DNA of 64,000 nt from an uncultured Eubacteriales bacterium (GTDB taxonomy: Bacteria > Bacillota_I > Bacilli_A > RF39 > UBA660), in contig CAJMAC010000007.1 in the NCBI GenBank assembly GCA_905211265.1, forward strand, positions 905 to 64,904, in the 5' to 3' direction. The notes beneath the pieces are model-generated. The model was not told the origin of the DNA. It did no database searches and was given only the letters and a program-made list of their open reading frames with translations. A program made the position numbers and the translations under genes. Position 1 is the stretch's first letter; every line of letters begins with the position of its first letter. Below, in pieces: positions 23,497 to 46,344 of the stretch.

Positions 23497-25836
23497 ATGA
23501 TAAAAATAATAGTTTTTAATAAAACACTCCTAGTATTTTTGAAATTAATGTTTGCTTTAATTTCAAAAGTTTGGTCTATATTACATATTTGTATTGACTT
23601 TATTTTATATACTGGTGATAAATACAATGAATTAGTATTGGTATTAATAGGAGGAGAATTAACTTTAATAACCTTATTTTTCGCACTAATACCTACATTA
23701 GTAGATAAAAGAAATGATCAATATTATTTAGGTTATAAAATTTCAGAAATATTTTTATATGGTAACGGTAAAAAAAGTGAACTTACAAAAACTTGGATAG
23801 GCGGAATAATATTAGCATCAATAAATATTATATTTTGTTTACTAAAATTAGATAATTTATCATTTTTTTGTTTTACTATTTTTATAATGTTTTTTACTTT
23901 CAAAATTTTAAAATATTTAAATTTTATTTCGAATGATGATGAAATAAAAAATGAAATAGAAAAAAATTTTGTTAAAGAAGTTAATAGTAATTATAGTAGT
24001 TTAATTCAAAATATGTTTGATACATCTAAAGATAGTATGAAAAATATATATGATAATATGAATTTTTTATTTAAAATTAATGAAGATTCTAGAATTTTAA
24101 ATGATTACACTAATAAGTTATTAGATATAAAAAATATTAATCAAGATTCTATTTATTTTAAAATAGGTGAGTTTATTGAAGAAAAAAAATATAATTATTA
24201 TTTTAAGTTTGATTATTCTAAATTATATAAATATTTAAGAAATTCCATAAATGATTTTAATAAAGAAGACTATTATGGATTCATTCATACTCTATTGATT
24301 AATAATTATAATTGTTATATAAATAAACAAATGGAAAATATGGATGTTCTTGTACTACCTATATTTAGTGCAATAGATGATTCAAAATTATCAGCAAATA
24401 ATAGGCAAAACTTAAAAAATAGAATTATTAATAACATGAATATTTACATAAAAAAAGAGTATAGCATTTCTGATAAAGAGTACCCATATGTATATAAATA
24501 TGAATTCTATGTGTTGAAATATATTGTTGATAATAAAGATTTAAATTTATTTAATAAATTTATTAGAAATAATGATTCAAATTATACTAATTATGGAATT
24601 ATATATGATTTATATTTAACTTGTTTTTTATATTTATATTATCTAATTGAAATTGAAACAAAAAAATATGTTTCATTAGCTGATAAAAAAATATATAAAG
24701 AAATGTATAATCAATTATGCAAAGCATTTGACATTTCTAATTTTGAATTAAATGATTATTATTATAGAAATTTTAACGCTTTTTTCAAAAATCTAAATGA
24801 AGTCACTAATTGGTGGGAAAAATTTAATCTTGAAGATCAATGGGATTTAAAGACTTGCTTAGTGGATAGTTCTATAATTCAGTGTAAGAAAGCATTATTT
24901 ATAATTTTTGGGAAAGATTTTATAGGTAAAAAATATTCTATATCAGATGAAATTGTTAACTTGTTCAAATATGATTTTGAAAACGGAATTTTAAAGATTC
25001 AGAGTAAAGAGCAATTAAAAAGTGTTTTATTATTTTTTAAATATAATATAAATGATGAGTTAGAAAAATTTGAAGAAGATTTTTTAGAATTTGTATCAAA
25101 TAATTATAAAATTGATGAATTGTCAAAAAAAATAGATATTGAAAATTTATCGAAAAAATTAAATAATGAATTATCGATAATAAAAGAAAAAATCAATAAA
25201 TTGAGTATTATAAATAATAAAAAATGTAGCAATTTTGAGGAATGTTTTTGTAATATTAATTGCAGTAAAGATTTTTTAGATAGTTTTTATGCTAATAAGA
25301 ATTTGCTTAATGATTTGAATTTAGAATCGGCCTTAGAAAAATATGCATATGAATGTATTTTAAGCAAAGTAGAAAATAAAATATATCATAGCTACAAAGA
25401 TGATAAAATTATTGTTGATACTTTAGATAAAATTAAAAGTAGATATTTTTATTTTAGACCATCAAATGATTTATTAGGCGAAAAATGGAAGTTTGGAAAT
25501 AAATATAAAAATATAATATCGAGATATGAATTAGTCGATACTAGCATTTCAAAAATAAGAATATTAGTAAAAGATTATAATTGCTCAATAGAGAATATTT
25601 CATTAGAGTTAAAAGAAGTGACTGATGATTTTATTAAAAGTAAACTAAGAAGTCATTTTATTTCAAGAAATAAGTATTGCATAAAAAATGAATTTGGATT
25701 AGAGATATTTTTTACTAAAAAGGAATTTTTAAATTACTTAAAAAATACTGAGGTATTACTTCAAATAAAGATTAAATTTGGATTAGATATTTTTGGAAAT
25801 AAAAATATAGCATTTATTAGAAAAAAGGATAGTTGA
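23497..25836 (+). CDS. Large membrane-anchored hypothetical protein (779 aa)
   Basis: About 4 N-terminal TM segments, then a ~600-aa soluble Asn/Lys-rich region without recognisable motifs. Confidence 0.5.
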   Translation: MIKIIVFNKTLLVFLKLMFALISKVWSILHICIDFILYTGDKYNELVLVLIGGELTLITLFFALIPTLVDKRNDQYYLGYKISEIFLYGNGKKSELTKTWIGGIILASINIIFCLLKLDNLSFFCFTIFIMFFTFKILKYLNFISNDDEIKNEIEKNFVKEVNSNYSSLIQNMFDTSKDSMKNIYDNMNFLFKINEDSRILNDYTNKLLDIKNINQDSIYFKIGEFIEEKKYNYYFKFDYSKLYKYLRNSINDFNKEDYYGFIHTLLINNYNCYINKQMENMDVLVLPIFSAIDDSKLSANNRQNLKNRIINNMNIYIKKEYSISDKEYPYVYKYEFYVLKYIVDNKDLNLFNKFIRNNDSNYTNYGIIYDLYLTCFLYLYYLIEIETKKYVSLADKKIYKEMYNQLCKAFDISNFELNDYYYRNFNAFFKNLNEVTNWWEKFNLEDQWDLKTCLVDSSIIQCKKALFIIFGKDFIGKKYSISDEIVNLFKYDFENGILKIQSKEQLKSVLLFFKYNINDELEKFEEDFLEFVSNNYKIDELSKKIDIENLSKKLNNELSIIKEKINKLSIINNKKCSNFEECFCNINCSKDFLDSFYANKNLLNDLNLESALEKYAYECILSKVENKIYHSYKDDKIIVDTLDKIKSRYFYFRPSNDLLGEKWKFGNKYKNIISRYELVDTSISKIRILVKDYNCSIENISLELKEVTDDFIKSKLRSHFISRNKYCIKNEFGLEIFFTKKEFLNYLKNTEVLLQIKIKFGLDIFGNKNIAFIRKKDS

Positions 25837-26575: not shown

Positions 26576-26690
26576 AATTGTAAAATTTGATAATTATATT
26601 TAAAATATTGTAATTAGTTATAATTTATAAATGCTTATAATATAAGGCTTTTAACTAGTAATAATTTATTTTGTGTGTGATATATTTTTG

Positions 26691-26893
26691 CCCCCTGAAG
26701 GAGCCGAAAGGCTCCGCTTTTTGTTTAAATCTAGAATACATACTACTAAAACTTGTATTCTTTTTATTATGTTTACTCTAAGCCTAAGGTCTTAGAGTGT
26801 TAGATTAAGCCTTTATAAAAGTCTTAATCTAATAGCATATGTTATTATTTATGTAGAAGATAACTAAATAAATAATATTATTTCAAAAAATAA
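26691..26893 (+). repeat. Structured repeat unit A (core + terminator + three hairpins + tail)
   Basis: - CCCCCTGAA core.
- GGAGCC-GAAA-GGCTCC followed by T5.
- TAGAATACA...TGTATTCT followed by T5.
- ACTCTAAG-CCTAAGGT-CTTAGAGT.
- TTAGATTAAG...CTTAATCTAA.
- ...GTAGAAGATAACTAAATAAATAATA tail.
Near-identical to unit B. Confidence 0.85.
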
Positions 26894-27105: not shown

Positions 27106-27627
27106 ATGAATTCAAATGAACTTAAAAATATTATTGAGAATGCTAGAATTGTTAAAGGAATTTCTCAAAGAGAACTTGCTAAATTATCTGGAATAAGTAG
27201 AAGTACCTTAAATGATATTATTAATGGGAAAATTAAAAAAGTAGATGTTGATTCTTTAAAAAAGATAGCTGAAACTTTAGATTTATCTTTAACTAATCTT
27301 TTAAAAATTGCTGGTTATGATGAATTTTTAGATTATTTGTCTTTAGATAAATATAAAAATAAATCCACGAAGGATTTAAAAGAAATGATTGAAAAATATA
27401 AAAAGTCAGAATTAGATTTATTAGATTTTGATGCACAAAAAAGAAAAAAGGTAAAAAAAGCAAGACAACACTTGTTTTATACAATTGAGCATTTAAAAAT
27501 AATGCAAGAAAGTAAGGATAGTTTATATACAATAGATAAAACTATAGAAGATATTAAATGGTGTTTTGATGAATTAGAAGATGTGGAACAGAAATATGAT
27601 TATGATAAATTACCAAAAGATATGTAG
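27106..27627 (+). CDS. XRE-family HTH regulator, likely R-M controller (C) protein
   Basis: ISQRELAKLSGISRSTLNDIINGK is an HTH_3 motif. The gene sits immediately upstream of the endonuclease gene. Confidence 0.75.
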   Translation: MNSNELKNIIENARIVKGISQRELAKLSGISRSTLNDIINGKIKKVDVDSLKKIAETLDLSLTNLLKIAGYDEFLDYLSLDKYKNKSTKDLKEMIEKYKKSELDLLDFDAQKRKKVKKARQHLFYTIEHLKIMQESKDSLYTIDKTIEDIKWCFDELEDVEQKYDYDKLPKDM

Positions 27628-27636
27628 GAGGATTAT

Positions 27637-28815
27637 ATGAAAATAAGTAATGTAATAGTAGAACAAATTCTTAATTCAACAGTTGTTGAAGATTATGCAG
27701 AAATATTAACTCCAACTGAAATGAAAGAAATAGTATGTGAATCATTTAAAGATTCAAGAGTAAGTTCAGATGGTTATATTTATGGTTCTTACACGGGAAC
27801 AAAATATTGTATATTATGCAAAAATATAAGTTATTTAGGAAATCCACATCCAATATATAAAAAACGCATTCAAATACCAGATGGTTTTATAACTTTATAT
27901 AATGAAAATATAAAAAAAGGTATAACAACGTTATTGATAGGAGTTTATAAATATAAAGATACTATATTATTTTGTGATTTTGATACTTCTAAATATATTA
28001 ACAATAAATCACATAATTCTTCAGCGCATATATATACGATAGATTTATTAAACGGTGTTAGAAATGGCATTTTTAAGAAGAAAGATTATAGAAATAACAT
28101 AATAACTGTTTTTGATGAAAACAATGTTAATAAGTTTCTTGAAATGAAATTAAATGTATCATCAACTACAGGAGTAGAAGTTTTTGATACATTAGATGAG
28201 TTTTTTGCATCTATGTTTAAAGAATGGGTTGGAATTGAATGTTATATGGAAATGATTGAAAATGGTTTTAATAACAAATTTCAACCAGAATGGCCTGGCT
28301 TTTACTTGGAATATAAATTAGAAAAGTATTTAGAGGAAAATCATAAAACAGATATTATTAGATATTGTCAAAATAAAAAGAATGGTGATGTTGATTTAGA
28401 TTTATATTTCCCAAAATTAGGGATGTATGGTGATTTAAAAACACATAGTTTAAATAGTAATGCTATTCAAGGTAATGATTACAATACAATAATGGATTTA
28501 ATAGAAAAACAAAGTGTATATTATATTGTTTGTAGTCATGAAACAGAAAAAGATAAAAACCATGGTTTTGTTGTGACAGAATTTTGGAATAGGGCTCAAA
28601 ATAAAACAGATTTACATAGTTATGGAAACAAAATGAAATATAGTGTAAAAATAACAAAGTATTATATATTGGAAATAAATAAATATAATAAAAAATATTT
28701 AGAAATATTTAAACAAGGAAAAAATAGTGATGGCAAATCTAGAGAACCAAAGATAATGATACCAGATAAATATATAGAAAATTTTCTTGTACATATTGTA
28801 GAATTTGATGATTAA
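27637..28815 (+). CDS. Putative type II restriction endonuclease
   Basis: Lies between the C protein and the C5-methyltransferase genes. Candidate PD-DxK core (DVDLDLYF...YGDLKTH). No family assignment possible by eye. Confidence 0.55.
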   Translation: MKISNVIVEQILNSTVVEDYAEILTPTEMKEIVCESFKDSRVSSDGYIYGSYTGTKYCILCKNISYLGNPHPIYKKRIQIPDGFITLYNENIKKGITTLLIGVYKYKDTILFCDFDTSKYINNKSHNSSAHIYTIDLLNGVRNGIFKKKDYRNNIITVFDENNVNKFLEMKLNVSSTTGVEVFDTLDEFFASMFKEWVGIECYMEMIENGFNNKFQPEWPGFYLEYKLEKYLEENHKTDIIRYCQNKKNGDVDLDLYFPKLGMYGDLKTHSLNSNAIQGNDYNTIMDLIEKQSVYYIVCSHETEKDKNHGFVVTEFWNRAQNKTDLHSYGNKMKYSVKITKYYILEINKYNKKYLEIFKQGKNSDGKSREPKIMIPDKYIENFLVHIVEFDD

Positions 28816-28883: not shown

Positions 28884-30056
28884 GTGAAAAAGTTTAAATT
28901 TATAGATTTGTTTTCAGGAATTGGTGGATTTCATCAAGCAATGGAAAATTTAGGTGGCGAATGTGTTTTTGCTTCCGATATAGATAAATATGCAATAGAA
29001 ACTTATAAAGAAAATTATGGTATTGATTCAGATATAAATGTAAGAGATATTAAGGAAGAAGATATTCCTAAACATGATGTTTTATGTGCTGGTTTTCCCT
29101 GTCAAACATTTTCAAAAGCTGGAAAAAGAATGGGGTTTCAAGATGAAACAAAAGGAACACTTTTCTTTGAAATTGAAAGAATCTTAAAATACCATAAAAC
29201 AAAATATATAATTTTAGAGAATGTTAGAAATTTGGTATCCCATGATCATGGAAATACATGGAAAACTATTTATACACATTTGAAAGAATTAGGTTATAGA
29301 TTAACACCAAGACCGTTAATATTAAGTCCTCATCAGTTAGGTGTTCCACAATTAAGAGAAAGAGTTGTAATTTTAGGAATATATGATCCTAAAAATAGTG
29401 ATAAAGATTTGGCCTTTAATTTTAATGCTTTAGAAAAACTTAAAACTAAAGAAGATAACAATATATATGATATTATTGAAACAGGAAAAGTTGAAGAAAA
29501 ATATTATATAACTGAAAGAGAAAAATACATTTTAACAGCATGGGATAATTTTTATAAAGGAATAAAAGAAAAGGTGTTAGGGTTCCCTGTTTGGTTTGAA
29601 TATTTTAAAAAGAAACCAACTGATGATATGCCTAATTGGAAAAAGGAATTTATTGAAAAAAATAATAAGTTATATAAAAATAACAAAGAATTTATAGATA
29701 AGTGGTCTAAGGAATATAACAATTTAAAAGATTTTACTCCAACTCAAAGAAAATTTGAATGGCAAGCTGGAGATTCTATTGAGTCATTATGGGACGGATT
29801 AATCCAATTTAGACCATCTGGAATAAGAGTTAAGAAACCAACATGTTTTCCAGCTTTAGTTGCACTTGTTCAGATTCCAATAATAGGAAAGTATCAAAGA
29901 AGATTGACTGTAAGAGAAGCAGCAAGATTGCAAAGTTTTCCGGATAACTTTAAACCAAATAATAATGCTCAACAAGCATATAAGCAGTTTGGAAATGCTG
30001 TAAACGTAAAAGTAATTCAATTGGCAGCAGAAGAATTGTTTAATTACGAAGGGTAG
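28884..30056 (+). CDS. DNA (cytosine-5) methyltransferase
   Basis: GTG start. Motif I FIDLFSGIGGF, motif IV GFPCQTFS, motif VI ENV, motif VIII QLRERV, motif IX RRLTVREAARLQSFPD, motif X GNAVNV. Confidence 0.9.
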   Translation: MKKFKFIDLFSGIGGFHQAMENLGGECVFASDIDKYAIETYKENYGIDSDINVRDIKEEDIPKHDVLCAGFPCQTFSKAGKRMGFQDETKGTLFFEIERILKYHKTKYIILENVRNLVSHDHGNTWKTIYTHLKELGYRLTPRPLILSPHQLGVPQLRERVVILGIYDPKNSDKDLAFNFNALEKLKTKEDNNIYDIIETGKVEEKYYITEREKYILTAWDNFYKGIKEKVLGFPVWFEYFKKKPTDDMPNWKKEFIEKNNKLYKNNKEFIDKWSKEYNNLKDFTPTQRKFEWQAGDSIESLWDGLIQFRPSGIRVKKPTCFPALVALVQIPIIGKYQRRLTVREAARLQSFPDNFKPNNNAQQAYKQFGNAVNVKVIQLAAEELFNYEG

Positions 30057-30070
30057 TTCCTTCTTTTTTT
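30048..30070 (+). terminator. Terminator of the methyltransferase gene
   Basis: GAAGG-gtagtt-CCTTC followed by T7. The stop codon lies in the loop. Confidence 0.6.
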
Positions 30071-30077
30071 GTTCATA

Positions 30078-30108
30078 TTTTTGTAATATATTCAAAATAT
30101 TACAAAAA
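30078..30108. promoter_or_regulatory. Perfect 12/12 palindromic operator
   Basis: TTTTTGTAATAT (30078-30089), 7-nt centre, ATATTACAAAAA (30097-30108). It abuts the -35 box. Confidence 0.6.
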
Positions 30109-30112
30109 TATA

Positions 30113-30140
30113 TTGACAATATGTTCAAAATGTGTATAAT
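30113..30140 (+). promoter_or_regulatory. Near-consensus sigma-A promoter of the GHKL operon
   Basis: TTGACA (30113-30118), 16-nt spacer ending in TGTG, TATAAT (30135-30140). Confidence 0.7.
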
Positions 30141-30165
30141 ATGTGGTGAATGAGGGGTGACTGTC

Positions 30166-30381
30166 ATGGAACAGAAAAAAGCAAAATTTAGAGAATTAGC
30201 TGAAAAAAGAGTTAGCAATGCTTTAAAGCAAATTCAATTAATTGGTAATCTTTCTAACACAAGAGTATATGAATATGATGAGGAAGACATTAAGAAAATA
30301 TTTAAAACATTAAAAGAGGAAATTGGTTTGTCTGAAGCAAAATTCAAATCAAAAGGTAGAGATAGAAATTTTAAGTTTTAG
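30166..30381 (+). CDS. Small charged helical protein (71 aa), first gene of the GHKL operon
   Basis: Track start is GTG 30157. GAGGGG precedes the ATG at 30166. No motif. Confidence 0.55.
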   Translation: MEQKKAKFRELAEKRVSNALKQIQLIGNLSNTRVYEYDEEDIKKIFKTLKEEIGLSEAKFKSKGRDRNFKF

Positions 30382-30386
30382 AGGGA

Positions 30387-32645
30387 GTGATATTGATGTT
30401 GAAGAAATTATTTAATGCAAATAGCGTTAAGGATATTAATGAATTGATTAAACTATTAGAAAGTAAGTATGATACAGAATGGATTCCAGTAGGTAATAAT
30501 GAATCAAATCATTCAACTTTTCAAATGCTTGAAAGAGGCGAGAATGGAATTATAGAAAGGTTAACTAATGCAATAGATGCAGTTATTGAAAAAGAGTATT
30601 TTTTAAATCCTGATGAAAATTTAAATAGTCCAAGAAAATCATCAGAAAAATACTTTGGTATAAAAGAAGGTAATTTGGCTAACTACAATATTAAAGATAT
30701 TAAGAAAGAACTTAAAGATTTAGTAAAATTAAACGTTTTAGAATCAAATAAAAAAGGAAGACCCACTATAGAGATTAGAGATTATGGGATCGGATTATCT
30801 TCAGAAGAATTTGGTAAAACTATTTTAAGTTTACAAGGTGGAAACAAATTGAAAAAATTTTATTTAGCAGGAACATTTGGTCAAGGAGGATCAACTGCAA
30901 ATATTTTTTCTAAACACACATTATTTATCTCAAAGCCAATTCCAGAAAAGAATAATTCTAATAAAATTTCATTTACGATTACAAAAGAATTTAACGATTT
31001 AGATTATAAAACTCCAATTCATAAATATTTAGTATTAAAGAGTACTAAATGTCCTATAACTGTTGAAGATTGTAATAATGAATTTGAACCAGGTACACTT
31101 GTTAGACATATAGAAATGAATATTAATCAATATGGTAGAAGTAGTGCAAAAGCGCCAGGAGATAATAGTATTTATCATTTTGTTAATAAAAAACTATTTA
31201 ATCCAATTTTACCTATTAAAATAACAGAAAATAGATTAGAAGTTGATAGAACTAATATAGAAAGAAATAATAATACTATTGTTGCATTAGGATGTAATTC
31301 TAGATTAAATGATAATAGTAATGTTAAATATAGTGATAAATTGATTACTGAATATATATTCGGTGGAACGATAACAATTAATTATTGGATAATAAATGAT
31401 AGAAATTCATATAAAAACTATAATGATAAATCAACGCCTGTTTTATATACTATAAACGGACAGGTAGAAGGATATGAAACGGCCAATTTTTTTGAAAAAA
31501 TTGGTAAACCTTATTTATTAAATCATTTAATTGTAAATGTTGATTGTGACGGTATGGATGATAGAATTAAAGCAAGATTATTTACATCAGATAGAACTAA
31601 ATTTCAAGATAATGATTATACTGACACATTAAGAAAAAAAGTTATTAATATTCTAATCGAAGATATGAAATTAGTAGAGTTTAATAGATTCTTTAAAGAA
31701 CAAATGTTAAGTGAATCATCTGAGAATATTAGTGATGAGTTAAATAAAAAAATAGAGAATAAATTAAAGGTATTTTTAAATACAGGTGGAATTGGTAAAG
31801 TTTCTAAGGAGATTCCAACTCCAAAACCACCAAGACCAACCACATCAGAACCTTTTGAAAAACCTGAATTATTTGATTTTCCTACATTCCTTGATATTTC
31901 TAATCAAGAGCAATATGAGTTACCAATAAATAAAGATTTAGTATTAAATTATATTTCAGATGCTGACCATGAAAAATATTCAATGGAAGATAATTTGAAT
32001 TTTATAATTGAAAAAGAAAATATGCTAATATTTGATGGATTTAAATTTTATAAAAACGGGCATGGAATAATTAATTATAAATTGGCTCCAGAAGTAAAAG
32101 TTGGTGACGAAATATTCTTTAAATTATTTATAAAAGGATTTGATGATGATTCAAATTTATCATCTTCAATTATGATTAAAATTGTAGATAAAGAGAAAGA
32201 CGATCAACAAAATACAGAACAAACTAAACAACCACCAAAAATAAATACAAGATCTGTTTTTAAAACAAGCCAAGAATTTGATGAATTATTTGGTGAAGAT
32301 GAAGAATTGCCAAGTGTATTAAGAGACTCGGATGAATCTATTGATATATTTATTAATATGGAAAACAAATCATTAAGAAAACTACAAGAAAATACTACGA
32401 AAGGTAGCAATGATAATGATTCTGTTAAAATATTAAATAATGAATATATAAAACAGATTGCTTACTATAGTTTAATTTTACATATAAATGAATCTAAAAA
32501 ATCTGATGATGAAAAAATGAATGATAAATCAAAATCAGAAGAATTAAAAAGAGTAGCTATATTAATTACTGGTATGATTAATGATAATCTTTCAATTTAT
32601 ATAACAGAAAGTGGGAATAATAATGGAATTGAAGAATCTAATTAG
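30387..32645 (+). CDS. GHKL (Bergerat-fold) ATPase with large uncharacterised C-terminal region
   Basis: N box ERLTNAIDA, G1 IRDYGIGLS and G2 GTFGQGGST all fall within the first ~180 aa. There is no DHp/H-box. A PTPKPPRPTTSEP linker is followed by ~270 aa of unknown sequence. An alternative ATG is at 30396. Confidence 0.7.
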   Translation: MILMLKKLFNANSVKDINELIKLLESKYDTEWIPVGNNESNHSTFQMLERGENGIIERLTNAIDAVIEKEYFLNPDENLNSPRKSSEKYFGIKEGNLANYNIKDIKKELKDLVKLNVLESNKKGRPTIEIRDYGIGLSSEEFGKTILSLQGGNKLKKFYLAGTFGQGGSTANIFSKHTLFISKPIPEKNNSNKISFTITKEFNDLDYKTPIHKYLVLKSTKCPITVEDCNNEFEPGTLVRHIEMNINQYGRSSAKAPGDNSIYHFVNKKLFNPILPIKITENRLEVDRTNIERNNNTIVALGCNSRLNDNSNVKYSDKLITEYIFGGTITINYWIINDRNSYKNYNDKSTPVLYTINGQVEGYETANFFEKIGKPYLLNHLIVNVDCDGMDDRIKARLFTSDRTKFQDNDYTDTLRKKVINILIEDMKLVEFNRFFKEQMLSESSENISDELNKKIENKLKVFLNTGGIGKVSKEIPTPKPPRPTTSEPFEKPELFDFPTFLDISNQEQYELPINKDLVLNYISDADHEKYSMEDNLNFIIEKENMLIFDGFKFYKNGHGIINYKLAPEVKVGDEIFFKLFIKGFDDDSNLSSSIMIKIVDKEKDDQQNTEQTKQPPKINTRSVFKTSQEFDELFGEDEELPSVLRDSDESIDIFINMENKSLRKLQENTTKGSNDNDSVKILNNEYIKQIAYYSLILHINESKKSDDEKMNDKSKSEELKRVAILITGMINDNLSIYITESGNNNGIEESN

Positions 32646-33912
32646 TAATATGAATGGTGGAAATATTACTCTTGATGATGGTGTAATAAAAATCGATTCA
32701 ATTATTACTGAAGGAAAATATAATATACTTATTTCATTTTTAAATGAAAAAAATATATTTACAACAAATGATTTAAAAAAAATGAATGTTAATGATTATA
32801 ATAAATTGAAGATGGAAATACCAAATATTGATGGCGTGGGCGAAGAAAGAACCAAGTTGTTTATAAAGAAATTAGATAATGTTAGAAAAAACAAACATGA
32901 AATAAAAGCAAAAACACCAAATAAAAATGATTCTGAATATCCTATTGTAGAATTACTTGGAAAATTTAAAACTACTGTCAATTGGTCAGTAGAAATAAAT
33001 CATATATTATATAATAAATACGATGAGTATGTAGATATAAGACAAGTAAAAAATGATGGTACAAGAGGGAAAGGAATTTCTATAAAAAGACAAGATTTTG
33101 ATAAATTTAAAGAAATTATTTCTTCTATTAATTTGGATATTATAAAAGATAAAATAGTACCTTTAGAAAGTTTAGAATTAGAATCAGGTGATAAGAATGT
33201 TGAATCTACCAATACTTTGAACTTGGAAAAAATATTTTTTGAGAGCAATGAAAAAAAATCTTTAAAAGAACAGATATTAGAAAATGAAGACAGGTTATAT
33301 AAAGTGTTTAAAGATGATTTTGGGTTAGCAATAAAATTTTTTAAAGCAAAAATTGAAAGCCTTAGGGAAGATGGAGATATTGTAAAGTTTTTAGAAAATC
33401 CATCTATTCTTGATATAAAAAAAGAACAATTTGATAAGACACATATCAAAGGTATGAAAACCGCTATTGATATAAAAAATGATTTTGATAAAAGTGATTT
33501 GAAATATACAACAATAGATAGTTTGAATTTAAATGAAAGTGTTAATACAATGACTATTTGTAGTATAGCAAATAATTTTAATGTCATGTTAGGAATGTAT
33601 TATGATGACATAACTAAATCTTTAATATTGAAATGTCAAATTAAAGATGGAACTTATGAAGATAAATGGATTAAACCAAATAAAAAACTATATTATTGTT
33701 TACAAAATGAAACAGATGAAAATTTTTCAAGACTTAGTTTTTCTAAATATCCAAATACAGTCTGTAAGAATATATTATTTGGCTATGATCTAGAAACAAA
33801 AGTATATTTATTTTATAGATATAATAAAAATGATGACTATATATATGCTGGTGAAGTTAAATTAGAAAAATTTGTAAATGGTAATAAAGCAATTATAGTC
33901 AATATCGGATAA
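32623..33912 (+). CDS. HhH + PC4/YdbC-like ssDNA-binding domain protein
   Basis: Track start is GTG 32611. The ATG at 32623 overlaps the end of the GHKL gene. IPNIDGVGEERTKLFIKKL is an HhH motif. YVDIRQVKNDGTRGKGISIKRQDFDKFKEIISSI matches the PC4 signature. The C-terminal ~230 aa are unknown. Confidence 0.6.
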   Translation: MELKNLISNMNGGNITLDDGVIKIDSIITEGKYNILISFLNEKNIFTTNDLKKMNVNDYNKLKMEIPNIDGVGEERTKLFIKKLDNVRKNKHEIKAKTPNKNDSEYPIVELLGKFKTTVNWSVEINHILYNKYDEYVDIRQVKNDGTRGKGISIKRQDFDKFKEIISSINLDIIKDKIVPLESLELESGDKNVESTNTLNLEKIFFESNEKKSLKEQILENEDRLYKVFKDDFGLAIKFFKAKIESLREDGDIVKFLENPSILDIKKEQFDKTHIKGMKTAIDIKNDFDKSDLKYTTIDSLNLNESVNTMTICSIANNFNVMLGMYYDDITKSLILKCQIKDGTYEDKWIKPNKKLYYCLQNETDENFSRLSFSKYPNTVCKNILFGYDLETKVYLFYRYNKNDDYIYAGEVKLEKFVNGNKAIIVNIG

Positions 33913-34026
33913 CGAACACATTTATATAATGTCATAACGTCATTTTGCTAAGTATTAATGAAGAAAACAAACTATAATACAAATAATACGAGTTTATGCT
34001 CTTTTTGGGTTTTGGGAGGTGATATT

Positions 34027-37000
34027 TTGTATTATATTAATGATAAAGTAAAAGAAAAATTTAATAATGATGATTATTTTGACGGAAAAGAATATGTAAG
34101 AAAAATAAAAGAAGCGATTAAAACAAAAGATATTAAATCTATTGGTGTTTATGGCAAATGGGGAATAGGAAAAACATCAATAATCAAAAATGCTATTTCT
34201 GAATTAATTGAGGAAGGAGAATACGCAGAAAATCAAATAGTTGAATACAATGCATGGAAATATAACGAATACGATTTTATGAGAGATTTTTTAATAGTTT
34301 GCTCTAATAAAATTGAAGGAGAAAAAACTGCTAAAGAACGTGAAGAAAGTTATTATAGCGATAGTTCTGAAGATAGACAATTGTATGTGATGTTATGGAA
34401 AAAACTGGGAACATTTATAAAGAAAAGTTGGCGTGTTCTTTTGTTTCTTACAATTACATATATTGTTTCAGTAATAGTAATACTTTATATAAATTATTTA
34501 AAACCAACATTGTTTGATTGTGCTGATTTATTGATACCTTTAACTCTAACTTTAATTAGTTTTATTTTACCACTATTCTTAGTTTCCGAAATAACTCACA
34601 AGTCAATAAGTAAAAAGTTTTCTCCAGAACAATTTGCAAGAGATTTTGAGGATATAGTAAAAAATAAAAAAGTATTAATTTTTATTGATGATATTGATAG
34701 ATGTAGTTATGAAGAAATAAAATCTACTTTTGATACACTAAAAACATTTATTTTAGATGAGAGTTATAATGTTAAGTTTATTATACCGGTAGATCCAAAC
34801 ATTTTATTTAATTCATTGGAAGAACAAACATACGATTATTTTTCTAAAATTATTGATTTTCCTATAGAAATAAAGAATTATACCAAAGTAAAATTTGAAC
34901 CTTTAAAAGAAGAAATATTAAAAGAAGTAAATAATGATTATAAAGAAATAGTTAGTGATGGTTTATATTTAGCATCCAAATTCTACATTGATACACCTAG
35001 AAAAATGAAAAAATTTGCAAATGAATTTGTTAATGAAATATATAATCATTCTCCTAAAGAAATATATGATAAAGGATATATGTTTGCTAAATTGATAATT
35101 TTAAAGAATGAATTTCCAAATTATTATTATAATTTAATTAGGAACTATAATACAGTTATTGAAATAACAAAAGATGAAATAACAAACTATAAATCTAAAG
35201 ATTATACTGAATCAAAGAAACAAAAAAAAGGTGTTGTATTTAGTATGAGATTGCTGGACTTCTTATCAAAAACGGACAGTGTTGATTTATATAATTTCCC
35301 AATGTATGAAAATAAAATTTCATATTCAGAATATAAAATCAAAGCTATATGTGAGGATCCGTTTGTTAAAAATAAATTTGATGATAGAGTAAAAATAGAT
35401 TTAAAAGAAAATATAGTGTATTTAGATTATGAATTTTCTGAAAATATTATTAAACCTATAATAAATAATAAATTTTTATACAGTGATCCATTAAAAAGAG
35501 TCTGCTTTCTTTTCGTCGAATTTAAAAGACAAGAAAATAGTGAAATTTTCAATAAATATTTTGAAGAAATTATTGATAATTTCGAATCATTAAAACAAGA
35601 TTGTAATTTGTTTGTTTCAGAAAAGATAAATGAAGAAAATATTTCACATTTAAATTTAAAATATATATTTGAATGTGTAGAAGATTATATCGATTTATTG
35701 AAAGAACACAATAAGAATTTATTAAAGGATAATCTTTTAATAAAGATACTTCAACTTATACAAAATAATATAGATGGGAGTTTTCAATATGTTGAAGATG
35801 AATTATTAATATTTATTCAAAAATTTAAAGAATTAAAAAATGTTGATGACCCAAATATGATTAAAATAATTGATAAATTATTATCTAATAATTTTGAAAA
35901 ATACTATAAAGAATTAGATTGGTATTTAAAGTTTAGTTCATCTGCAGGTAAAACATGCTTTGTAGGAAATATAATAAAACTAATAGAAAATAATATAGAA
36001 TTAGACGAAGAGTTAATAGAAAAATATTTAGATAATAGATATTTTTCTATAAATACAAACAACTATTTTGATAATGTATCAAATAATATTGCTGATATAT
36101 TAGAGAAACCGAGCATCTATAAATGTATATTGTCACCATTATATAACAATTTAAACAGCAAAGATATTTCTTTTGAAAAACTAGAAAATGTAATTAATAA
36201 TACTAAATATATATCTAATAATGAGGATATTAATAAACTAATTTTAAGAATAGTATTAGAAATGAAAAAATCTATTGGCTTTGATGAAACCAAATATAAA
36301 TTAATTTTAACAAACATTGGTACAGAATATGAAAAAAGCGAATCTATTAGTAATCCATTTAAAGAATTTCTCGAAGAGTGTAACGATGACGATAGATACA
36401 TTCTTCTTGGTTATAATGAAGAAACTAAAATATTTAATAACTTTAAGGTGTTAAAAAATTATAAATTATCATTTGTTAATAAAGATTCATTGTTGTTCAA
36501 TATATTGTGTAATTCATACTGCAAATTTGAAGATTTTGTTGTAAAAACAGACTTAGAAAGACATGGCTTAAAATTATCAAGTCTAAAAAATGAAATAAAA
36601 AATATAATAAAAGAAAATATTGACAATACAATTTACCTTATTAACGATTTTAGTGAAGAAGAAATTAATGATATTGATTTTCAACTTTTAAATATAAATG
36701 AAATAAAGTTAGAATATATAGAAAATAAATATTTATTAACCAAAATTGTAAATCAATTAAAGATGAATGTTGACAATAATATAAGAAATATTAAATCAAA
36801 TAAAGAAAATAAAGAATTAATAAAAGAAGAAGTGGATAAATTATTGCTAAATGCAAATAAATTATATGCAGAAATAAAATATAGCGATAAAACTTTATGG
36901 ACAAAACTAAAAATAATAAATGAGTATCTGGCATTAAATGAATTAATTGATACTTATTATATTCCAAAATTAAAAGAATATCCCAATTTAATTAAATTAT

Positions 37001-37089
37001 TTAGTGAAGGAAGATATAAAGATAATTATATGAAAGATAATATATTTGCAGATAAAATATTAATAGGTATTGGCATAAAAAATGAGTAA
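34027..37089 (+). CDS. KAP-family P-loop NTPase with membrane insert
   Basis: Track start is 33958. GGAGG lies 7 nt before TTG 34027. Walker A GVYGKWGIGKTS. Two TM helices (VLLFLTITYIVSVIVILYI, LIPLTLTLISFILPLFLV) are inserted before Walker B VLIFIDDIDRC, the KAP hallmark. Long helical C-terminus. Confidence 0.8.
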   Translation: MYYINDKVKEKFNNDDYFDGKEYVRKIKEAIKTKDIKSIGVYGKWGIGKTSIIKNAISELIEEGEYAENQIVEYNAWKYNEYDFMRDFLIVCSNKIEGEKTAKEREESYYSDSSEDRQLYVMLWKKLGTFIKKSWRVLLFLTITYIVSVIVILYINYLKPTLFDCADLLIPLTLTLISFILPLFLVSEITHKSISKKFSPEQFARDFEDIVKNKKVLIFIDDIDRCSYEEIKSTFDTLKTFILDESYNVKFIIPVDPNILFNSLEEQTYDYFSKIIDFPIEIKNYTKVKFEPLKEEILKEVNNDYKEIVSDGLYLASKFYIDTPRKMKKFANEFVNEIYNHSPKEIYDKGYMFAKLIILKNEFPNYYYNLIRNYNTVIEITKDEITNYKSKDYTESKKQKKGVVFSMRLLDFLSKTDSVDLYNFPMYENKISYSEYKIKAICEDPFVKNKFDDRVKIDLKENIVYLDYEFSENIIKPIINNKFLYSDPLKRVCFLFVEFKRQENSEIFNKYFEEIIDNFESLKQDCNLFVSEKINEENISHLNLKYIFECVEDYIDLLKEHNKNLLKDNLLIKILQLIQNNIDGSFQYVEDELLIFIQKFKELKNVDDPNMIKIIDKLLSNNFEKYYKELDWYLKFSSSAGKTCFVGNIIKLIENNIELDEELIEKYLDNRYFSINTNNYFDNVSNNIADILEKPSIYKCILSPLYNNLNSKDISFEKLENVINNTKYISNNEDINKLILRIVLEMKKSIGFDETKYKLILTNIGTEYEKSESISNPFKEFLEECNDDDRYILLGYNEETKIFNNFKVLKNYKLSFVNKDSLLFNILCNSYCKFEDFVVKTDLERHGLKLSSLKNEIKNIIKENIDNTIYLINDFSEEEINDIDFQLLNINEIKLEYIENKYLLTKIVNQLKMNVDNNIRNIKSNKENKELIKEEVDKLLLNANKLYAEIKYSDKTLWTKLKIINEYLALNELIDTYYIPKLKEYPNLIKLFSEGRYKDNYMKDNIFADKILIGIGIKNE

Positions 37090-37191: not shown

Positions 37192-37218
37192 GGGGATTTT
37201 AAACAATCCTCTTTTTTT
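37192..37218 (+). terminator. Terminator after the KAP gene
   Basis: GGGGATT-ttaaac-AATCCTC followed by T7. Confidence 0.6.
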
Positions 37219-37221
37219 AAG

Positions 37222-37417
37222 CCCCCTGAAGGAGCCGGAAGGCTCCACTTTTTGTTTAAATTTAGAATACATATACTAAGCTTGTATTCTTTTTATTCAC
37301 TCTAAGCCTAAGGTCTTAGAGTGTTAGATTAAGCCTTTATGAAAGTCTTAATCTAATTGCATATGTTAACATTTATGTAGAAGATAACTAAATAAATAAT
37401 ATCATTTCAAAAAATAA
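37222..37417 (+). repeat. Structured repeat unit B (direct repeat of unit A)
   Basis: Same order of elements as unit A, with only scattered substitutions, from CCCCCTGAAGGAGCC to TTTCAAAAAATAA. Confidence 0.85.
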
Positions 37418-37523: not shown

Positions 37524-37970
37524 ATGAAAGAATTTAAACAATTAGGAGCTTATGGGTTAGTTATTCAAGATGGTAAAATTTTACTTATTAAAAAATTTGG
37601 AGGTCCTTATGATGGAAAATTAGATTTACCAGGTGGAACAATAGAGTTCTGCGAAAGACCGGAAGAGGCTTTAAAAAGAGAATTGATGGAAGAAGTTGGT
37701 ATAGAAGTAGTTGATTATCAATTATTTGATGCTGATTCTGTTGCCTTTGAATGGCAATTTAAAGAAGATATTTTAGTGAAGGTACATCATACTGGTATTT
37801 TCTTTAAAGTTTCAAACTATAATAATGAAATTAAGAAAGAAGTAAAAGTAGATGAAGTAAATGATGATTCACTTGGCGCAAAATTTTTTGATATTGATAA
37901 ATTGTCTAAAAAAGAATTATCTACTATAGCCATAATGGAATTAGAAAAATTAGGGTATAAACTTAATTAA
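37524..37970 (+). CDS. NUDIX hydrolase (cassette gene)
   Basis: Nudix box GGTIEFCERPEEALKRELMEEVGI. Confidence 0.8.
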   Translation: MKEFKQLGAYGLVIQDGKILLIKKFGGPYDGKLDLPGGTIEFCERPEEALKRELMEEVGIEVVDYQLFDADSVAFEWQFKEDILVKVHHTGIFFKVSNYNNEIKKEVKVDEVNDDSLGAKFFDIDKLSKKELSTIAIMELEKLGYKLN

Positions 37971-38053
37971 AAAAATTTAATAAATTACATATTGTGCGTT
38001 TTCCTAAAAAGATAAAGAAAAAAGTAAAATAAATATTTATATTTTAACTTAAT

Positions 38054-38087
38054 TAGAATACATATTACTAAACTTGTATTCTTTTTA
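38054..38087 (+). repeat. Repeat unit D (terminator hairpin only)
   Basis: TAGAATACAtattactaaacTTGTATTCT followed by TTTTA. Confidence 0.7.
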
Positions 38088-38185
38088 TTATATTTGTTTA
38101 AATAATAATAAAATTTCGCACTCTACAAAAAATAGAGTAAAAATGTCAAAGTTTTATGTTAGAATATACTTGTGGGTGAGGAAAT

Positions 38186-38917
38186 ATGACTAATTTAGGA
38201 GAAAAAATTAAAAATATAAGAATTGCAAATAATCTCAAACAAAGTGAACTAGCTAAAATGCTCTTTGTTTCCGAAAAAACAATTTCAAGTTGGGAAAATA
38301 ATAGAACAGTCCCAGATTTAAATATGATTTATAAAATATCAGACTATTTCAAAAAAAGTTTTTATTGTCTAATAAATGATGAACTTGATACAGAAAACAC
38401 AAATGAAATTGAAATAAAGTTAAAAGTTAATGAAGAAGAATATTCTAGAATACTAAATATAATAAAAAATAATTCAGTAAATAAAAGAAATGTTAATCAA
38501 ATTGATACTTATTACACTTTAACAAATAAAAAACTTAACCAAGAATGGCTAAGAATAAGAAATGAAAATGGTAAATATATATTTAATTATAAAAAGAAAA
38601 TAGATAATTCACATTATGAAAAATATGATGTATTAATAGATAATTTTAATAATCTAAATATAATATTAAATACCTTAGGAAGTAAACAAATAGGAACAAT
38701 AAATAAGAATAGAACAATTTATATATATAAAGATAAATACGAATTTTCTTTTGATATAGTTAAAGATATAGGAATTTTTATTGAAATAGAATTAATTAAT
38801 AAAAGTAATGACTTTGAAAAAGATTTCTTTGATTTATTAAATTTATTAGAAGACTTAAAAATAGATTTAAATATAGTGGATAGAAAAAAATATATTGATT
38901 ATTTAGAGGAAAAATAA
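38186..38917 (+). CDS. XRE HTH fused to CYTH (class IV adenylyl cyclase / triphosphate tunnel) domain
   Basis: N-terminal LKQSELAKMLFVSEKTISSWENNR. CYTH motifs EIEIKLKV (ExExK), WLRIRNENGKYIFNYKKK, NKNRTIYIYKDKYEFSFDIVKDIGIFIEIEL. Confidence 0.75.
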   Translation: MTNLGEKIKNIRIANNLKQSELAKMLFVSEKTISSWENNRTVPDLNMIYKISDYFKKSFYCLINDELDTENTNEIEIKLKVNEEEYSRILNIIKNNSVNKRNVNQIDTYYTLTNKKLNQEWLRIRNENGKYIFNYKKKIDNSHYEKYDVLIDNFNNLNIILNTLGSKQIGTINKNRTIYIYKDKYEFSFDIVKDIGIFIEIELINKSNDFEKDFFDLLNLLEDLKIDLNIVDRKKYIDYLEEK

Positions 38918-38919
38918 TT

Positions 38920-39546
38920 ATGAAAAAAACAGAATTAATTAAATTAAAAAAATTATTACAACAAGAAATTATTAAAAGAAATAAAATAAATACTCTACTA
39001 TCTAATGAATTAATCCAAGAATTTAAATCATTAACAAATTTAAATATCAATGAATTACAATTAAATGACAATTGGACTATACTAGAAGAAATTCTAAATA
39101 ATTTTCAAATAACCGAGTCTAATGGAATTCTTGTATGTACTGGAAGTTACTTAGTTTGTTGTAATATCTATTATCAAGAAACAGAATATTACACAAAAGA
39201 ATCGTCATTTAATAATCCCAATATAGAGTATCAAATATTTGAAGACATAGAAACGAGAAAAATGTATGTTGCTTATACAGAAAAATATATCAAAGATAAA
39301 ATAGAAGAACAAAAAAAGTATTACAATATAGAAGATATAACTCCAAGTGAATTTTGTTATAAGAAATATGGAAGATACCTAGTTAGTGACTTAATAAAAA
39401 AATATATAGTACTAAATCCTTATAATTCTTCTGAAAATAGAAATGGATTTAATGATGTTCAAAAGGATTTCTTTATAACTGCAATAGAAAAAGGTCAACC
39501 TAAAGCAAAACAATTAGTATTAAATAAATATCCAAAATTAAAATAA
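38920..39546 (+). CDS. Hypothetical protein (208 aa), second gene of the CYTH operon
   Basis: 2-nt gap to the upstream gene. No motif. Confidence 0.5.
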   Translation: MKKTELIKLKKLLQQEIIKRNKINTLLSNELIQEFKSLTNLNINELQLNDNWTILEEILNNFQITESNGILVCTGSYLVCCNIYYQETEYYTKESSFNNPNIEYQIFEDIETRKMYVAYTEKYIKDKIEEQKKYYNIEDITPSEFCYKKYGRYLVSDLIKKYIVLNPYNSSENRNGFNDVQKDFFITAIEKGQPKAKQLVLNKYPKLK

Positions 39547-39569
39547 TTAAATAAAGGAGAGTGAGTAAA

Positions 39570-40010
39570 ATGGATATAATACCTAACGGAACAGAAGTAT
39601 TAATATTTGAGTATATTAGAGAATGGGGACCAAGGCAAGATGATGAAAATTATATTAGTAAAGGTATAATTAAATCAAGTAAACAATCTGAAGACTTATC
39701 TTATCATGGAAGTCCATGGTATGAACAAATATATGAAGTATTAGGAGAAGACGGAAAAGAATATACTGGTACTTATGGTATAGGATCAGTATTTAATGGA
39801 AATATGTTTTTTAGAACAAAAGAACATCAAATTTATGTCTTAAATCTTAAAATTAGTGACAATGAAGAAAAAATATTAAAACTAAAAGAAAAAAATGATG
39901 AATATTTAAAGAAAATTGCAATATTAAAAAATGAATTAAAACAACAAAGTCAAAATGAACCAGTAAAAACAAAGAAATTAACTTTATCAAAAAATGAAAA
40001 TAATAAATAA
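39570..40010 (+). CDS. Hypothetical protein (146 aa), third gene of the CYTH operon
   Basis: Track start is GTG 39561. AGGAG lies 10 nt before the ATG at 39570. C-terminal coiled coil. Confidence 0.5.
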   Translation: MDIIPNGTEVLIFEYIREWGPRQDDENYISKGIIKSSKQSEDLSYHGSPWYEQIYEVLGEDGKEYTGTYGIGSVFNGNMFFRTKEHQIYVLNLKISDNEEKILKLKEKNDEYLKKIAILKNELKQQSQNEPVKTKKLTLSKNENNK

Positions 40011-40155
40011 TATAACTAGAATACATAAATTAAAGTAATTTTTTTCTTATGTTCACTCTAAGCCTAAAGTCTTAGAGTGTTAGATTAAGCCTTTATGAAA
40101 GTCTTAATCTAATTGCCTATGTTAATATTATATGAAAGATAACTAAATAATAATT
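40011..40155 (+). repeat. Repeat unit C
   Basis: Starts directly after the stop codon with TATAACTAGAATACA. The second terminator arm is eroded. Then CACTCTAAG...CTTAGAGTG, TTAGATTAAG...CTTAATCTAA and ...GAAAGATAACTAAATAATAA. Confidence 0.8.
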
Positions 40156-40233
40156 TTAAAGTGCAAATATGTAACTTTTAAAGTGCAAAAATTGCACTTT
40201 AAAATTGATAAAATAAATAAAATATGCTATAAT
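40154..40233 (+). promoter_or_regulatory. Fic promoter with palindromic operator
   Basis: Half-site TTTTAAAGTGCAAAT (40154-40168). Palindrome TTTTAAAGTGCAAaaaTTGCACTTTAAAA (40176-40204). TTGATA (40205-40210), 17-nt spacer, TATAAT (40228-40233). Confidence 0.55.
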
Positions 40234-40258
40234 ATTTATAGTTAGGAGAATTATTTTT

Positions 40259-41311: not shown

Positions 41312-41383
41312 TATAACTAGAATACATGTACTAAGCTTGTATTCTTTTTATTATGTAATAGTTTTAATCTAATTGCCTGTGTT
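41312..41383 (+). repeat. Repeat unit E (terminator hairpin plus truncated distal part)
   Basis: TATAACTAGAATACAtgtactaagcTTGTATTCT followed by TTTTA, then ...TTTTAATCTAATTGCCTGTGTT. Same post-stop junction as unit C. Confidence 0.75.
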
Positions 41384-41512
41384 TTAATTTATATAATTGA
41401 AATTTTAAACTAGTAAATTTTGAAAGTTTATAAAACATTGTAAAAACTTTAAAAAATAGTTTGCTATTTAAAAACAAAATGTTATAATGTTTTTGTAAAA
41501 GGAGATTATAAA

Positions 41513-43565: not shown

Positions 43566-43662
43566 TAATTAGTCATTTCTTAAAAAATAAGTAAAAAGTT
43601 ATGATATAATAGTTTTATGTAATATAAATATATTTACTTAATAATTAATGGAGGTAGTTATT

Positions 43663-46329: not shown

Positions 46330-46344
46330 TTATATATATTTTAT

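Follow-up and report, generated by a model that had tools for sequence, protein, structure and literature searches.

A GHKL ATPase operon beside a Type II restriction-modification pair in an uncultured Eubacteriales bacterium: a candidate accessory module of the MORC/paraMORC type

Does a GHKL ATPase operon that lies between a restriction-modification (R-M) pair and a KAP-family NTPase gene act as a defence system of its own, or does it serve the R-M enzymes beside it? The question is raised by a locus of an uncultured Eubacteriales bacterium (lineage RF39, UBA660) within the window, i.e., the stretch of 64,000 nucleotides (nt) of the contig CAJMAC010000007.1 (assembly GCA_905211265.1) that was analysed here. 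The operon comprises three genes: gene 1 (30166..30381, + strand) for a two-helix protein of 71 amino acids (aa) with a conserved C-terminal F-x-F tail, the partner of the large GHKL protein; gene 2 (30396..32645, +) for a 749-aa GHKL ATPase recognised by its invariant Bergerat motifs and fold matches; and gene 3 (32623..33912, +) for a 429-aa putative DNA reader with PC4-like and SRA-like folds. With a probability judged slightly better than even, this trio forms an accessory module for the neighbouring MTaX1 restriction enzyme and C5 cytosine DNA methyltransferase (M.C5), the whole constituting an R-M defence system of the MORC/paraMORC type that would work by DNA looping. The trio is always found with this R-M pair, and the pair is often found alone.

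Association of the trio with the restriction-modification pair

The sequences predict a Type II R-M pair immediately upstream of the trio, composed of a 392-aa restriction endonuclease with an N-terminal MTaX1 domain (27637..28815, +; PADLOC REase_II 8.5e-56 over the full length, Pfam MTaX1 4.2e-25) and the 390-aa M.C5 (28884..30056, +; Pfam DNA_methylase 1.4e-83). The MTaX1 enzyme is the sole nuclease candidate of the system and adjoins the C5 methylase in most relatives. M.C5 is 66-98% identical in all window-type loci and stands directly before gene 1 in every one of them except the locus L016, where a Schlafen-group-3-type helicase of 597 aa (7690-9483) is inserted between the two genes.

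The converse was assessed by a metagenome scan for M.C5, which returned about 25 informative loci (methylase at least 50% identical, with at least 3 kb of downstream sequence). The restriction enzyme and methylase were the only members of the set in about 18 of them, for example in L106, where the lone pair lies beside a plasmid Mob gene; genes 1-3 followed in three loci, the genes of a MORC-Z1-DUF4420 operon in two, and a gene 1 homologue succeeded by a different protein of about 786 aa in two more. Since the pair is often alone and the GHKL modules occur only with the pair, the R-M enzymes are regarded as autonomous and the modules as add-ons, and it is mainly because of this asymmetry that the trio is read as an R-M accessory. 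The coupling appears to be independent of gene order, because in L109 the order differs: a gene 1 homologue comes first, then a gene 2 relative of 31% identity and, after a gap of 4 nt, the restriction enzyme and M.C5.

The tie to methylases extends to the wider gene 2 family. Open reading frames (ORFs) were called in 86 non-duplicate loci, and the genes flanking the GHKL gene, three per side, were clustered, the clusters being named by Pfam. An N6/N4-type DNA methylase cluster (motifs DPFxGxGT and SPPY) was present in 65 of the 86 loci, where it mostly adjoins the GHKL gene on the same strand, and a C5 methylase took its place in seven further loci, which represent the clade of the window; thus, a DNA methyltransferase of one of two classes stands beside the GHKL gene in about 72 loci (~84%), across phyla. 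Another N6/N4 methylase family occurs in the archaeal loci L053-L055, and several of the others are truncated by the end of their contig. The initial annotation had described the trio as an independent unit between the R-M genes and the KAP gene that could be matched to no named system; this view gives way before the methylase adjacency of the family, the frequency of the lone pair, and the finding that the R-M pair always adjoins the trio, whereas the KAP gene is not conserved.

The trio is nevertheless preceded by a control region of its own. The methylase transcript would be ended by a terminator-like hairpin with a T-run (30048..30071, +), in which GAAGGGTAGTTCCTTC forms a stem at 30048-30063 overlapping the M.C5 stop codon. 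A palindromic candidate operator (30075..30111, unstranded) follows, with a perfect 12/12 core (30078-30089 / 30097-30108) that widens to 18-nt arms of 94% complementarity (30075-30092 / 30094-30111) and ends 1 nt 5' of the -35 element; it is present in eight of the nine window-type loci. The sigma-70-type promoter (30113..30140, +), with TTGACA at 30113-30118, a spacer of 16 nt, and TATAAT at 30135-30140, is the sole 12/12 match in 26.5-37.6 kb, a region with 101 promoter-like sites versus a shuffle mean of 97.3, so that the count of such sites is uninformative by itself. An alignment of the methylase-to-gene 1 spacer from seven loci, with 52-97% identity of their GHKL proteins, showed the -35 and -10 elements and the arms of the palindrome to be invariant or almost so, and the hairpin behind the methylase was retained in the relatives with a differing stem sequence. 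The conservation across seven diverged loci places the promoter and the palindrome beyond chance, and the trio is taken to be regulated on its own, because both elements are separate and conserved. The promoter and perfect palindrome of the initial annotation are thus upheld, as is the expectation of synteny: genes 1-3 recur together in other loci as a conserved unit with its own promoter.

The binder of the palindrome was sought in the 173-aa helix-turn-helix (HTH) regulator of Xre/C-protein type (27106..27627, +; Pfam HTH_3 5.1e-14, PADLOC Control_protein), encoded 9 nt upstream of the restriction enzyme gene, whose sequence looks like that of an R-M controller. The HTH gene is optional, being found in the window, L014, L016, L098-L100 and L116 and missing from L006, L009 and L017; the latter three loci keep the palindrome, by which this candidate is ruled out, and the palindrome was not found again ahead of either the HTH or the restriction enzyme gene. 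Other clades have palindromes of their own, and one that recurs in Bacteroidota (ATACTATATTT-N4-AAATATAGTAT) precedes the gene 1 homologue by 5-37 nt (L035, L044, L061, L068, L074, L090). The difference between the palindromes of the two groups suggests clade-specific operators, and their position ahead of gene 1 homologues would fit autoregulation by an operon product.

A control region of this kind is also what would be expected if genes 1-3 sensed and acted on invading nucleic acid alone, the R-M adjacency reflecting the clustering of defence genes. In addition to the conserved promoter, candidate operator and upstream terminator, such autonomy would agree with the defence-island surroundings and with the mosaic identities of two relatives to the window (L006: gene 2 78%, M.C5 75%, restriction enzyme 30%; L016: gene 2 54%, M.C5 85%, restriction enzyme 74%). 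However, the same M.C5 adjoins every trio locus, the wider family is methylase-linked through two methylase classes, the restriction enzyme of L109 starts as close as 4 nt past gene 2, and none of the three proteins was found to contain an effector domain, so that autonomous defence is held to be improbable.

Domain composition of the three proteins

The start of gene 2 is most likely the ATG at 30396 (749 aa), since its homologues begin with MLKKLF and a ribosome-binding site is located at ~30381-30387. The tight packing of the three genes reported initially is confirmed together with the 23-nt overlap of genes 2 and 3, but the gap between genes 1 and 2 is corrected from 5 to 14 nt. None of the direct profile searches with genes 1-3, made in Pfam, NCBIfam, PADLOC and the PDB sequences, produced a significant match, and the assignments given below therefore rest on family- and fold-level evidence.

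In 46 of the 86 loci, among them loci of Bacteroidota and archaea (Methanoregula, Micrarchaeota), the GHKL gene is immediately preceded by a gene 1 homologue, with the two-helix pattern and the C-terminal F-x-F tail conserved, which makes gene 1 a conserved small partner of gene 2. It had no significant match to families or PDB, and its interpretation as a known regulator was rejected, the sole hints being sub-threshold DUF4145 and RacA-like matches with no recognisable DNA-binding fold; a subunit that docks on gene 2 is the interpretation leaned towards here. Gene 1 may be able to partner more than one family of large ATPases. In L115 (1541-4933), the gene behind the gene 1 homologue encodes a protein of 786 aa, in which motifs resembling those of GHKL proteins were discerned by eye (DAIQN, DCGDTG, GLYGQG); this protein has no Pfam match, no homology to gene 2 could be detected in it (hhalign probability 0.5%), and its neighbours are the same R-M pair and an MmeI-type enzyme. 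In L118, where a gene 1 homologue is likewise present, no relative of gene 2 was found, the genes downstream not having been read.

The gene 2 homologue search yielded 182 proteins, almost all of 720-820 aa. The Bergerat residues E54, R55, T57, N58, D61 (N box), D129, G131, G133 (G1), and G159, G162, G164, G165 (G2) are invariant in 35 aligned members, and the boxes ExxxNxxD, DxGxG and GxxGxG stand in this order with residues 99-100% conserved in 313 members. The curated GHKL profiles left the window protein unmatched even at E<=10, and 13 of the 35 relatives match HATPase_c_3 (best 7.5e-8); in PADLOC, the 35 relatives gave one weak match only, to PDC-S33. The AlphaFold2 model (mean predicted local distance difference test, pLDDT, 82.5) consists of a GHKL and S5/transducer-like part (~1-440), a linker (464-489), a beta-rich region (~499-655) and a helical region (658-742), the last two modelled with confidence. 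Foldseek aligned the model over ~440-480 columns with the N-terminal and middle domains of Hsp90/GRP94 (~1e-10), with MORC2/3/4 and SMCHD1, and with MutL (1b63, 8.6e-8), within the range of 1e-10 to 1e-7. R400, invariant in both the 35- and the 313-member alignments, would be the catalytic finger. The motifs and the modelled fold establish gene 2 as a predicted GHKL+S5 ATPase, in which the ATP-binding motifs are intact and no nuclease site is conserved.

The Bergerat boxes with no DHp/H-box, noted from the letters alone, are thus borne out, and the proline-rich linker is recovered as the low-confidence, disordered residues 464-489. A sensor histidine kinase was dismissed, because the GHKL domain is N-terminal, no HisKA match was found, and the fold is that of Hsp90, MORC and MutL. 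Conservation is limited to the first ~430 residues in the 313 members, among which no conserved residues of catalytic type occur after residue 440; a nuclease in the C-terminus was excluded by the lack of any conserved acidic, basic or histidine constellation, and gene 2 is thought not to be a nuclease for this reason.

Gene 3 (AlphaFold2 model, pLDDT 79.8) is laid out as a helical part with a helix-hairpin-helix (HhH)-like motif (~28-92), a PC4-like domain (~105-167), a disordered segment (174-209), a helical domain (213-290) and an SRA-like domain (~300-429); its 53 homologues were all found on contigs that also carry GHKL genes of the window clade. The PC4-like segment of the initial annotation is supported at the level of the family and the fold only. 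Thus, the window protein scores 15.1 bits for Pfam PF02229 (PC4) against the cut-off of 25 (E 0.017), 17 of its 25 relatives match this family at E<=0.1 (best 3.2e-6), and the family profile finds proteins of the SP_0782 and EF_3132 type in PDB (4g06, 2l3a) at E ~0.03. In the model, strands at 108-155 and a helix at 156-167 form a four-stranded sheet plus helix, for which Foldseek retrieved SP_0782, EF_3132 and Pur-alpha (TMt 0.56-0.64). The likeness to YdbC, SP_0782 and EF_3132 includes the conserved DIR...GKGIS segment; these are standalone dimers of ~80 aa, whereas the domain of gene 3 is embedded in a multidomain protein.

The HhH motif at ~60-90 is plausible from the sequence pattern: it fits by eye, as originally proposed, but no profile confirms it, there being no HhH match for gene 3 at E<=10 or for 25 relatives at E<=0.1. 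The residues P67, G71, V72 and G73 are almost invariant there, and the region is helical. In the helical domain 213-290, E222 and D250-G-D252 are invariant; a PD-(D/E)xK site at 222-266 (E222, D250-G-D252, D264-I-K266) was ruled out, because this part is an all-helical bundle (pLDDT ~74-92).

Besides the PC4-type proteins, the best fold matches of gene 3 are SRA-type domains in two structure libraries, namely the DNA-recognition domains of SauUSI (4.4e-4), LpnPI (3.1e-3) and AspBHI (5.3e-2) by Foldseek for the C-terminal domain, and, as the top match in the viral structure library, a 'ScoMcrA-like SRA domain-containing protein' (3e-5). By its modelled fold, the region ~300-429 is SRA-like, of the methyl-cytosine reader type. 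Gene 3 differs from the SRA-domain enzymes that match it best (LpnPI and AspBHI of the MspJI family, SauUSI, ScoMcrA) in having no nuclease domain, in being encoded with a methylase, and in sharing no sequence-level similarity with them. The gene 3 homologue of L016 (12046-13578) possesses an extra C-terminal DpnI_C domain for binding of methyl-adenine DNA (1.8e-27).

From these parts, a mechanism may be proposed for the accessory module. The methylase would mark the host DNA with 5-methylcytosine (5mC), the methylation state would be read by the SRA-like domain of gene 3, and unwound or single-stranded DNA would be held by its PC4-like and HhH-like parts. A gene 2 dimer with docked gene 1 would close on DNA as an ATP-gated clamp, by analogy with MutL, MORC and the Hsp90-class GHKL proteins, and would loop or remodel the DNA so that the MTaX1 endonuclease cuts unmethylated invader DNA; the clamp may link recognition and cleavage sites or spare the marked self DNA from cleavage. 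The ATP-driven sensing of nucleic acid by the trio, suggested initially, is plausible.

Several points weigh against this reading. With a terminator, promoter and candidate operator of its own, and with identities that do not track those of the restriction enzyme, the trio could act separately from the pair. Many loci of the gene 2 family consist of a methylase and a GHKL gene with no conserved nuclease nearby, from which it follows that nuclease coupling is not family-wide. The SRA-like assignment is a fold assignment, no SRA match having been obtained by sequence profile in PDB or Pfam, and a reader of the host's own mark could be compatible with several different logics.

Methylase-linked relatives and the closest described systems

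The profile search with gene 2 among 1.84 billion cluster representatives retrieved 1,062 clusters (50% identity) at E<=1e-30 and 1,840 at E<=1e-10, with the full-length architecture of 720-820 aa conserved across hundreds of clusters. In the one-genome-per-species data, relatives were present in 161 stretches, and the phyla concerned include Bacteroidota, Pseudomonadota, Bacillota, Acidobacteriota, Chloroflexota and several archaeal lineages. The family has no PADLOC or NCBIfam model and no full-length Pfam model, and its RefSeq label is 'hypothetical protein'. No match was found in phages, and the six distant matches in plasmids are all annotated as 'hypothetical protein'. Two plasmid relatives of 806-843 aa, in L092 (Ensifer plasmid pC) and L093 (a Hymenobacter plasmid), have a different, defence-like context, with PAPS-reductase-family, SIR2, DUF262 and large ATP-binding proteins as neighbours and no methylase annotated in the stretch shown.

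Among the 86 neighbourhoods, 17 loci of Bacteroidota type encode in succession a small protein, the GHKL protein, an N6/N4 methylase and a 265-aa protein, in which a PD..ExK-like motif was discerned by eye only; 16 of them then carry a 508-aa HATPase_c_3 protein. A PLD/NgoFVII-like nuclease occurs in five loci and an AIPR protein in three loci of Bacilli/Mollicutes. More than 20 loci have the methylase and the GHKL gene alone, with or without gene 1, among unconserved neighbours. These last loci bring in a nuclease-free exclusion gated by methylation, in which a core of methylase and GHKL ATPase (plus gene 1) would entrap or compact unmethylated DNA by the clamp and block its replication or expression, likened to BREX without a nuclease and to the compaction by eukaryotic MORC, and the nucleases, MORC, AIPR and gene 3 would be lineage extras. 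The C-terminal 300 residues of gene 2, devoid of conserved catalytic-type residues, and the fold kinship to MORC and SMCHD1 point the same way; however, nucleases that act as partners could be encoded elsewhere or have escaped the clustering by their diversity, the window does have a restriction enzyme, and the 265-aa protein is carried by the operons of Bacteroidota and PLD nucleases by some loci. This alternative is therefore thought unlikely. Equally tentative is its evolutionary extension, by which such a core clamping unmarked DNA gained the SRA-like reader in the lineage of the window and would be a counterpart, and possibly an ancestor, of the eukaryotic silencing by a 5mC writer, an SRA reader and MORC.

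The preferred accessory reading receives a parallel from operons that share the reader. A profile built on the C-terminal 131 residues of gene 3 led to a set of ~220-aa proteins, which stand last in the operons of L094 (1735-8675) and L096 (1679-8660), after a standalone MTaX1 protein (187 aa), a C5 methylase, an HATPase_c_3 protein (~490 aa), Z1 and DUF4420. Residues 213-426 of gene 3 are 46% identical to this last protein (8e-60), and M.C5 is 73% identical to the methylase of the MORC-Z1-DUF4420 operon; no relatives of gene 1 or gene 2 were found in these Z1-type operons (L094, L096). Since both the methylase and the reader are shared with them, one methylase and reader pair appears to be combined with two GHKL cores. 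The Z1 protein of L094 matches MzaC of PADLOC (9.7e-32); within the L094/L096 operons, nothing but Z1 and the methylase was recognised by PADLOC (models MzaC and Helicase_II).

The Mza system (mzaABCDE) has reportedly been validated experimentally by Gao et al. in 2020. A system of Z1, PD-(D/E)xK and C5-methylase proteins was predicted by Miller et al. 2022 and likened by them to the validated mzaABCDE (PMC9523054), and the L094/L096 operon is probably the 'type I' of that prediction. The window resembles Mza and the Miller Z1 system in having a GHKL ATPase within a multi-gene defence operon, and shares with L094/L096 the methylase and the back half of gene 3, as given above; it differs from Mza in lacking Z1, DUF4420 and AIPR genes, and gene 1 is absent from the Z1-type operons. 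The Mza models of PADLOC matched neither genes 1-3 nor 35 gene 2 relatives.

The class to which gene 2 belongs was outlined earlier. Prokaryotic MORCs and five paraMORC families, i.e., GHKL+S5 ATPases in R-M operons, were described computationally by Iyer, Abhiman and Aravind in 2008 (PMC2292703), with which the occurrence of MORC-like GHKL ATPases by R-M genes, taken as established in the initial annotation, agrees. In that paper, DNA looping, the idea adopted in the mechanism above, was proposed for the paraMORCs with possible recruitment to repair, and paraMORC1 is a distinct GHKL family with a C-terminal extension, associated with MORC and with methylase and restriction enzyme genes in helicase-less operons (PMC2292703). 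Gene 2 is not MORC proper: the MORC signature of the S5 domain, GhXhhpXXRhl, occurs in all 15 complete 508-aa proteins of Bacteroidota versus none of the 82 gene 2 family members. It is most likely paraMORC1, as matched by the published description and not by sequence, and the family fits because the Bacteroidota operons pair it with a MORC-motif protein. The likeness includes the GHKL+S5 part with intact motifs, the distinct C-terminal extension, the placement in operons devoid of helicases that encode methylases and restriction enzymes, joined in some lineages by a true MORC, and the patchy, island-borne distribution. The difference is that a gene 1-like partner, a PC4/SRA-like reader, or an add-on to an autonomous Type II pair is not mentioned in the portion of the paper that was available (PMC2292703). 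Pfam MTaX1 ('Methylase-associated X1') may, to judge by the names, be the 'X1' domain of a figure legend there, and L025 includes Leeuwenhoekiella blandensis, which also appears in the species list of Iyer et al. 2008 (PMC2292703). Hence, the candidate undescribed system is such insofar as genes 1-3 lack PADLOC, NCBIfam and above-threshold Pfam matches, but its class has been described computationally since 2008. No experimental study of the gene 2 family was found in the literature, where few papers mention paraMORCs.

An experimentally validated case is VcSduA, a Shedu protein of paraMORC3 type, whose anti-phage function is under the control of its N-terminal GHKL ATPase (Adams et al. 2025, PMC12137116); it differs from the trio by its fused DUF4263 nuclease, single gene, and absence of a methylase link (PMC12137116). 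MutL with MutH/Vsr is alike in combining a GHKL+S5 ATPase with a separate restriction-fold endonuclease, in the use of a methylation mark for discrimination, and in the fold match; it differs in that here no MutS-like sensor and no C-terminal endonuclease/dimerisation domain of MutL were detected, and the context is a mobile island. The repair by Vsr in E. coli is stimulated by MutL. On this model, the trio could serve genome maintenance, either as a MutL-like helper for the mismatches from 5mC deamination or as an UHRF1-like reader bringing the methylase to hemimethylated DNA, for which the MutL-class fold, the 5mC-reader-like fold next to a C5 methylase, and the possible recruitment to repair noted by Iyer et al. 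(PMC2292703) may be adduced. It is quite unlikely, however, in that most family members pair with N6/N4 methylases, where the deamination mismatches of 5mC type are not the problem, that neither Vsr nor another mismatch nuclease is present here, and that the patchy distribution, the island location, and the R-M, AIPR, PLD and MORC partners point to conflict systems.

The surrounding island and the significance of the locus

Immediately after the trio, the KAP-family P-loop NTPase of 1043 aa (33958..37089, +; Pfam KAP_NTPase 1.9e-29, weak similarity to QatA and PifA) is encoded in the same direction, 45 nt past gene 3, with no terminator between. Inspection of the NTPase by eye showed a pair of predicted transmembrane helices within the P-loop domain, and a long C-terminal region has no assignment. 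As a part of the system it was rejected, for it has no homologue in any related locus and is absent from L009, and the KAP gene of L006 is a different one on the opposite strand. The same observations bear on a guard function, in which the module would monitor the R-M pair or its methylation and respond to a phage disabling it by abortive infection, possibly via KAP. Such a guard would suit an add-on that depends on the R-M pair, a closely following KAP gene, and the different KAP near the trio of L006; the missing conservation of the KAP gene and the fact that no toxin-like domain was identified leave it very unlikely.

The order of the genes before the trio is RecG (14431-16431), a tyrosine integrase (16661-17776, - strand; Phage_integrase 1.2e-26), an AAA_25/DnaB_C-like protein (17779-18783, -), a 611-aa protein with five DUF4379 treble-clef zinc-finger repeats and NUMOD1 (21418-23253, +), in which the direct repeats of DNA encode EWDYEKN, a 779-aa ORF with a hydrophobic N-terminus (23497-25836, +) and no match in Pfam, NCBIfam or PADLOC, and then the R-M pair. 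KAP is followed by Nudix, HTH-CYTH, Fic, a superfamily 1 (SF1) helicase with DUF2726, and Type I R-M. The cargo at 37524-41311 and 43648-55002 includes the Nudix and HTH-CYTH proteins, two small ORFs, Fic, which bears a VbhA-like N-terminus and a winged HTH, the 893-aa SF1 helicase fused to DUF2726 and the Type I R-M genes (HsdM 48487, HsdR 51934). The integrase adjacent to RecG is probably the left end of an integrative defence island of ~40 kb; thus, the island cannot be called integrase-less, as it had been, and the defence-island setting noted initially is supported.

A repeated multi-hairpin intergenic element brackets, by its left (26685..26893, +) and right (37216..37417, +) copies, a block of 10.5 kb from the HTH gene to KAP; further copies are located at 40015-40173 and 41318-41395, and a partial one at 38070-38095. 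The element of 160-210 nt is formed by a terminator hairpin and then three or four inverted repeats (TAGAATACA..TGTATTCT, CTCTAAGCC..GGTCTTAGAG, TTAGATTAAG..CTTAATCTAA), with a z-score of -4.96 for the RNA fold. All its copies have the same orientation and separate the blocks of genes like cassette boundaries. It gave no Rfam match in 20-45 kb and is absent from the 97 loci retrieved.

A system of this kind was predicted in 2008 and is related to the Mza-like systems; new here are the gene 1 partner, the PC4/SRA-like reader and the add-on architecture. Of the GHKL/MORC-type ATPases then predicted in R-M operons, only Mza and the paraMORC3-type Shedu have been tested in the literature searched, and the family described here, large and present in both bacteria and archaea (the 1,062 clusters at E<=1e-30), is represented by no model in the defence libraries searched. 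The window provides a compact case for the cooperation of an ATP-driven clamp with a methylase and a restriction enzyme, with the assets of a native promoter of consensus sequence and a candidate operator, a defined partner R-M pair, a small conserved subunit, and a putative reader of methylated DNA. The locus thereby allows asking whether an SRA-like reading of methylation is coupled to a MORC-like engine in prokaryotes, which bears on the origin of MORC silencing in eukaryotes.

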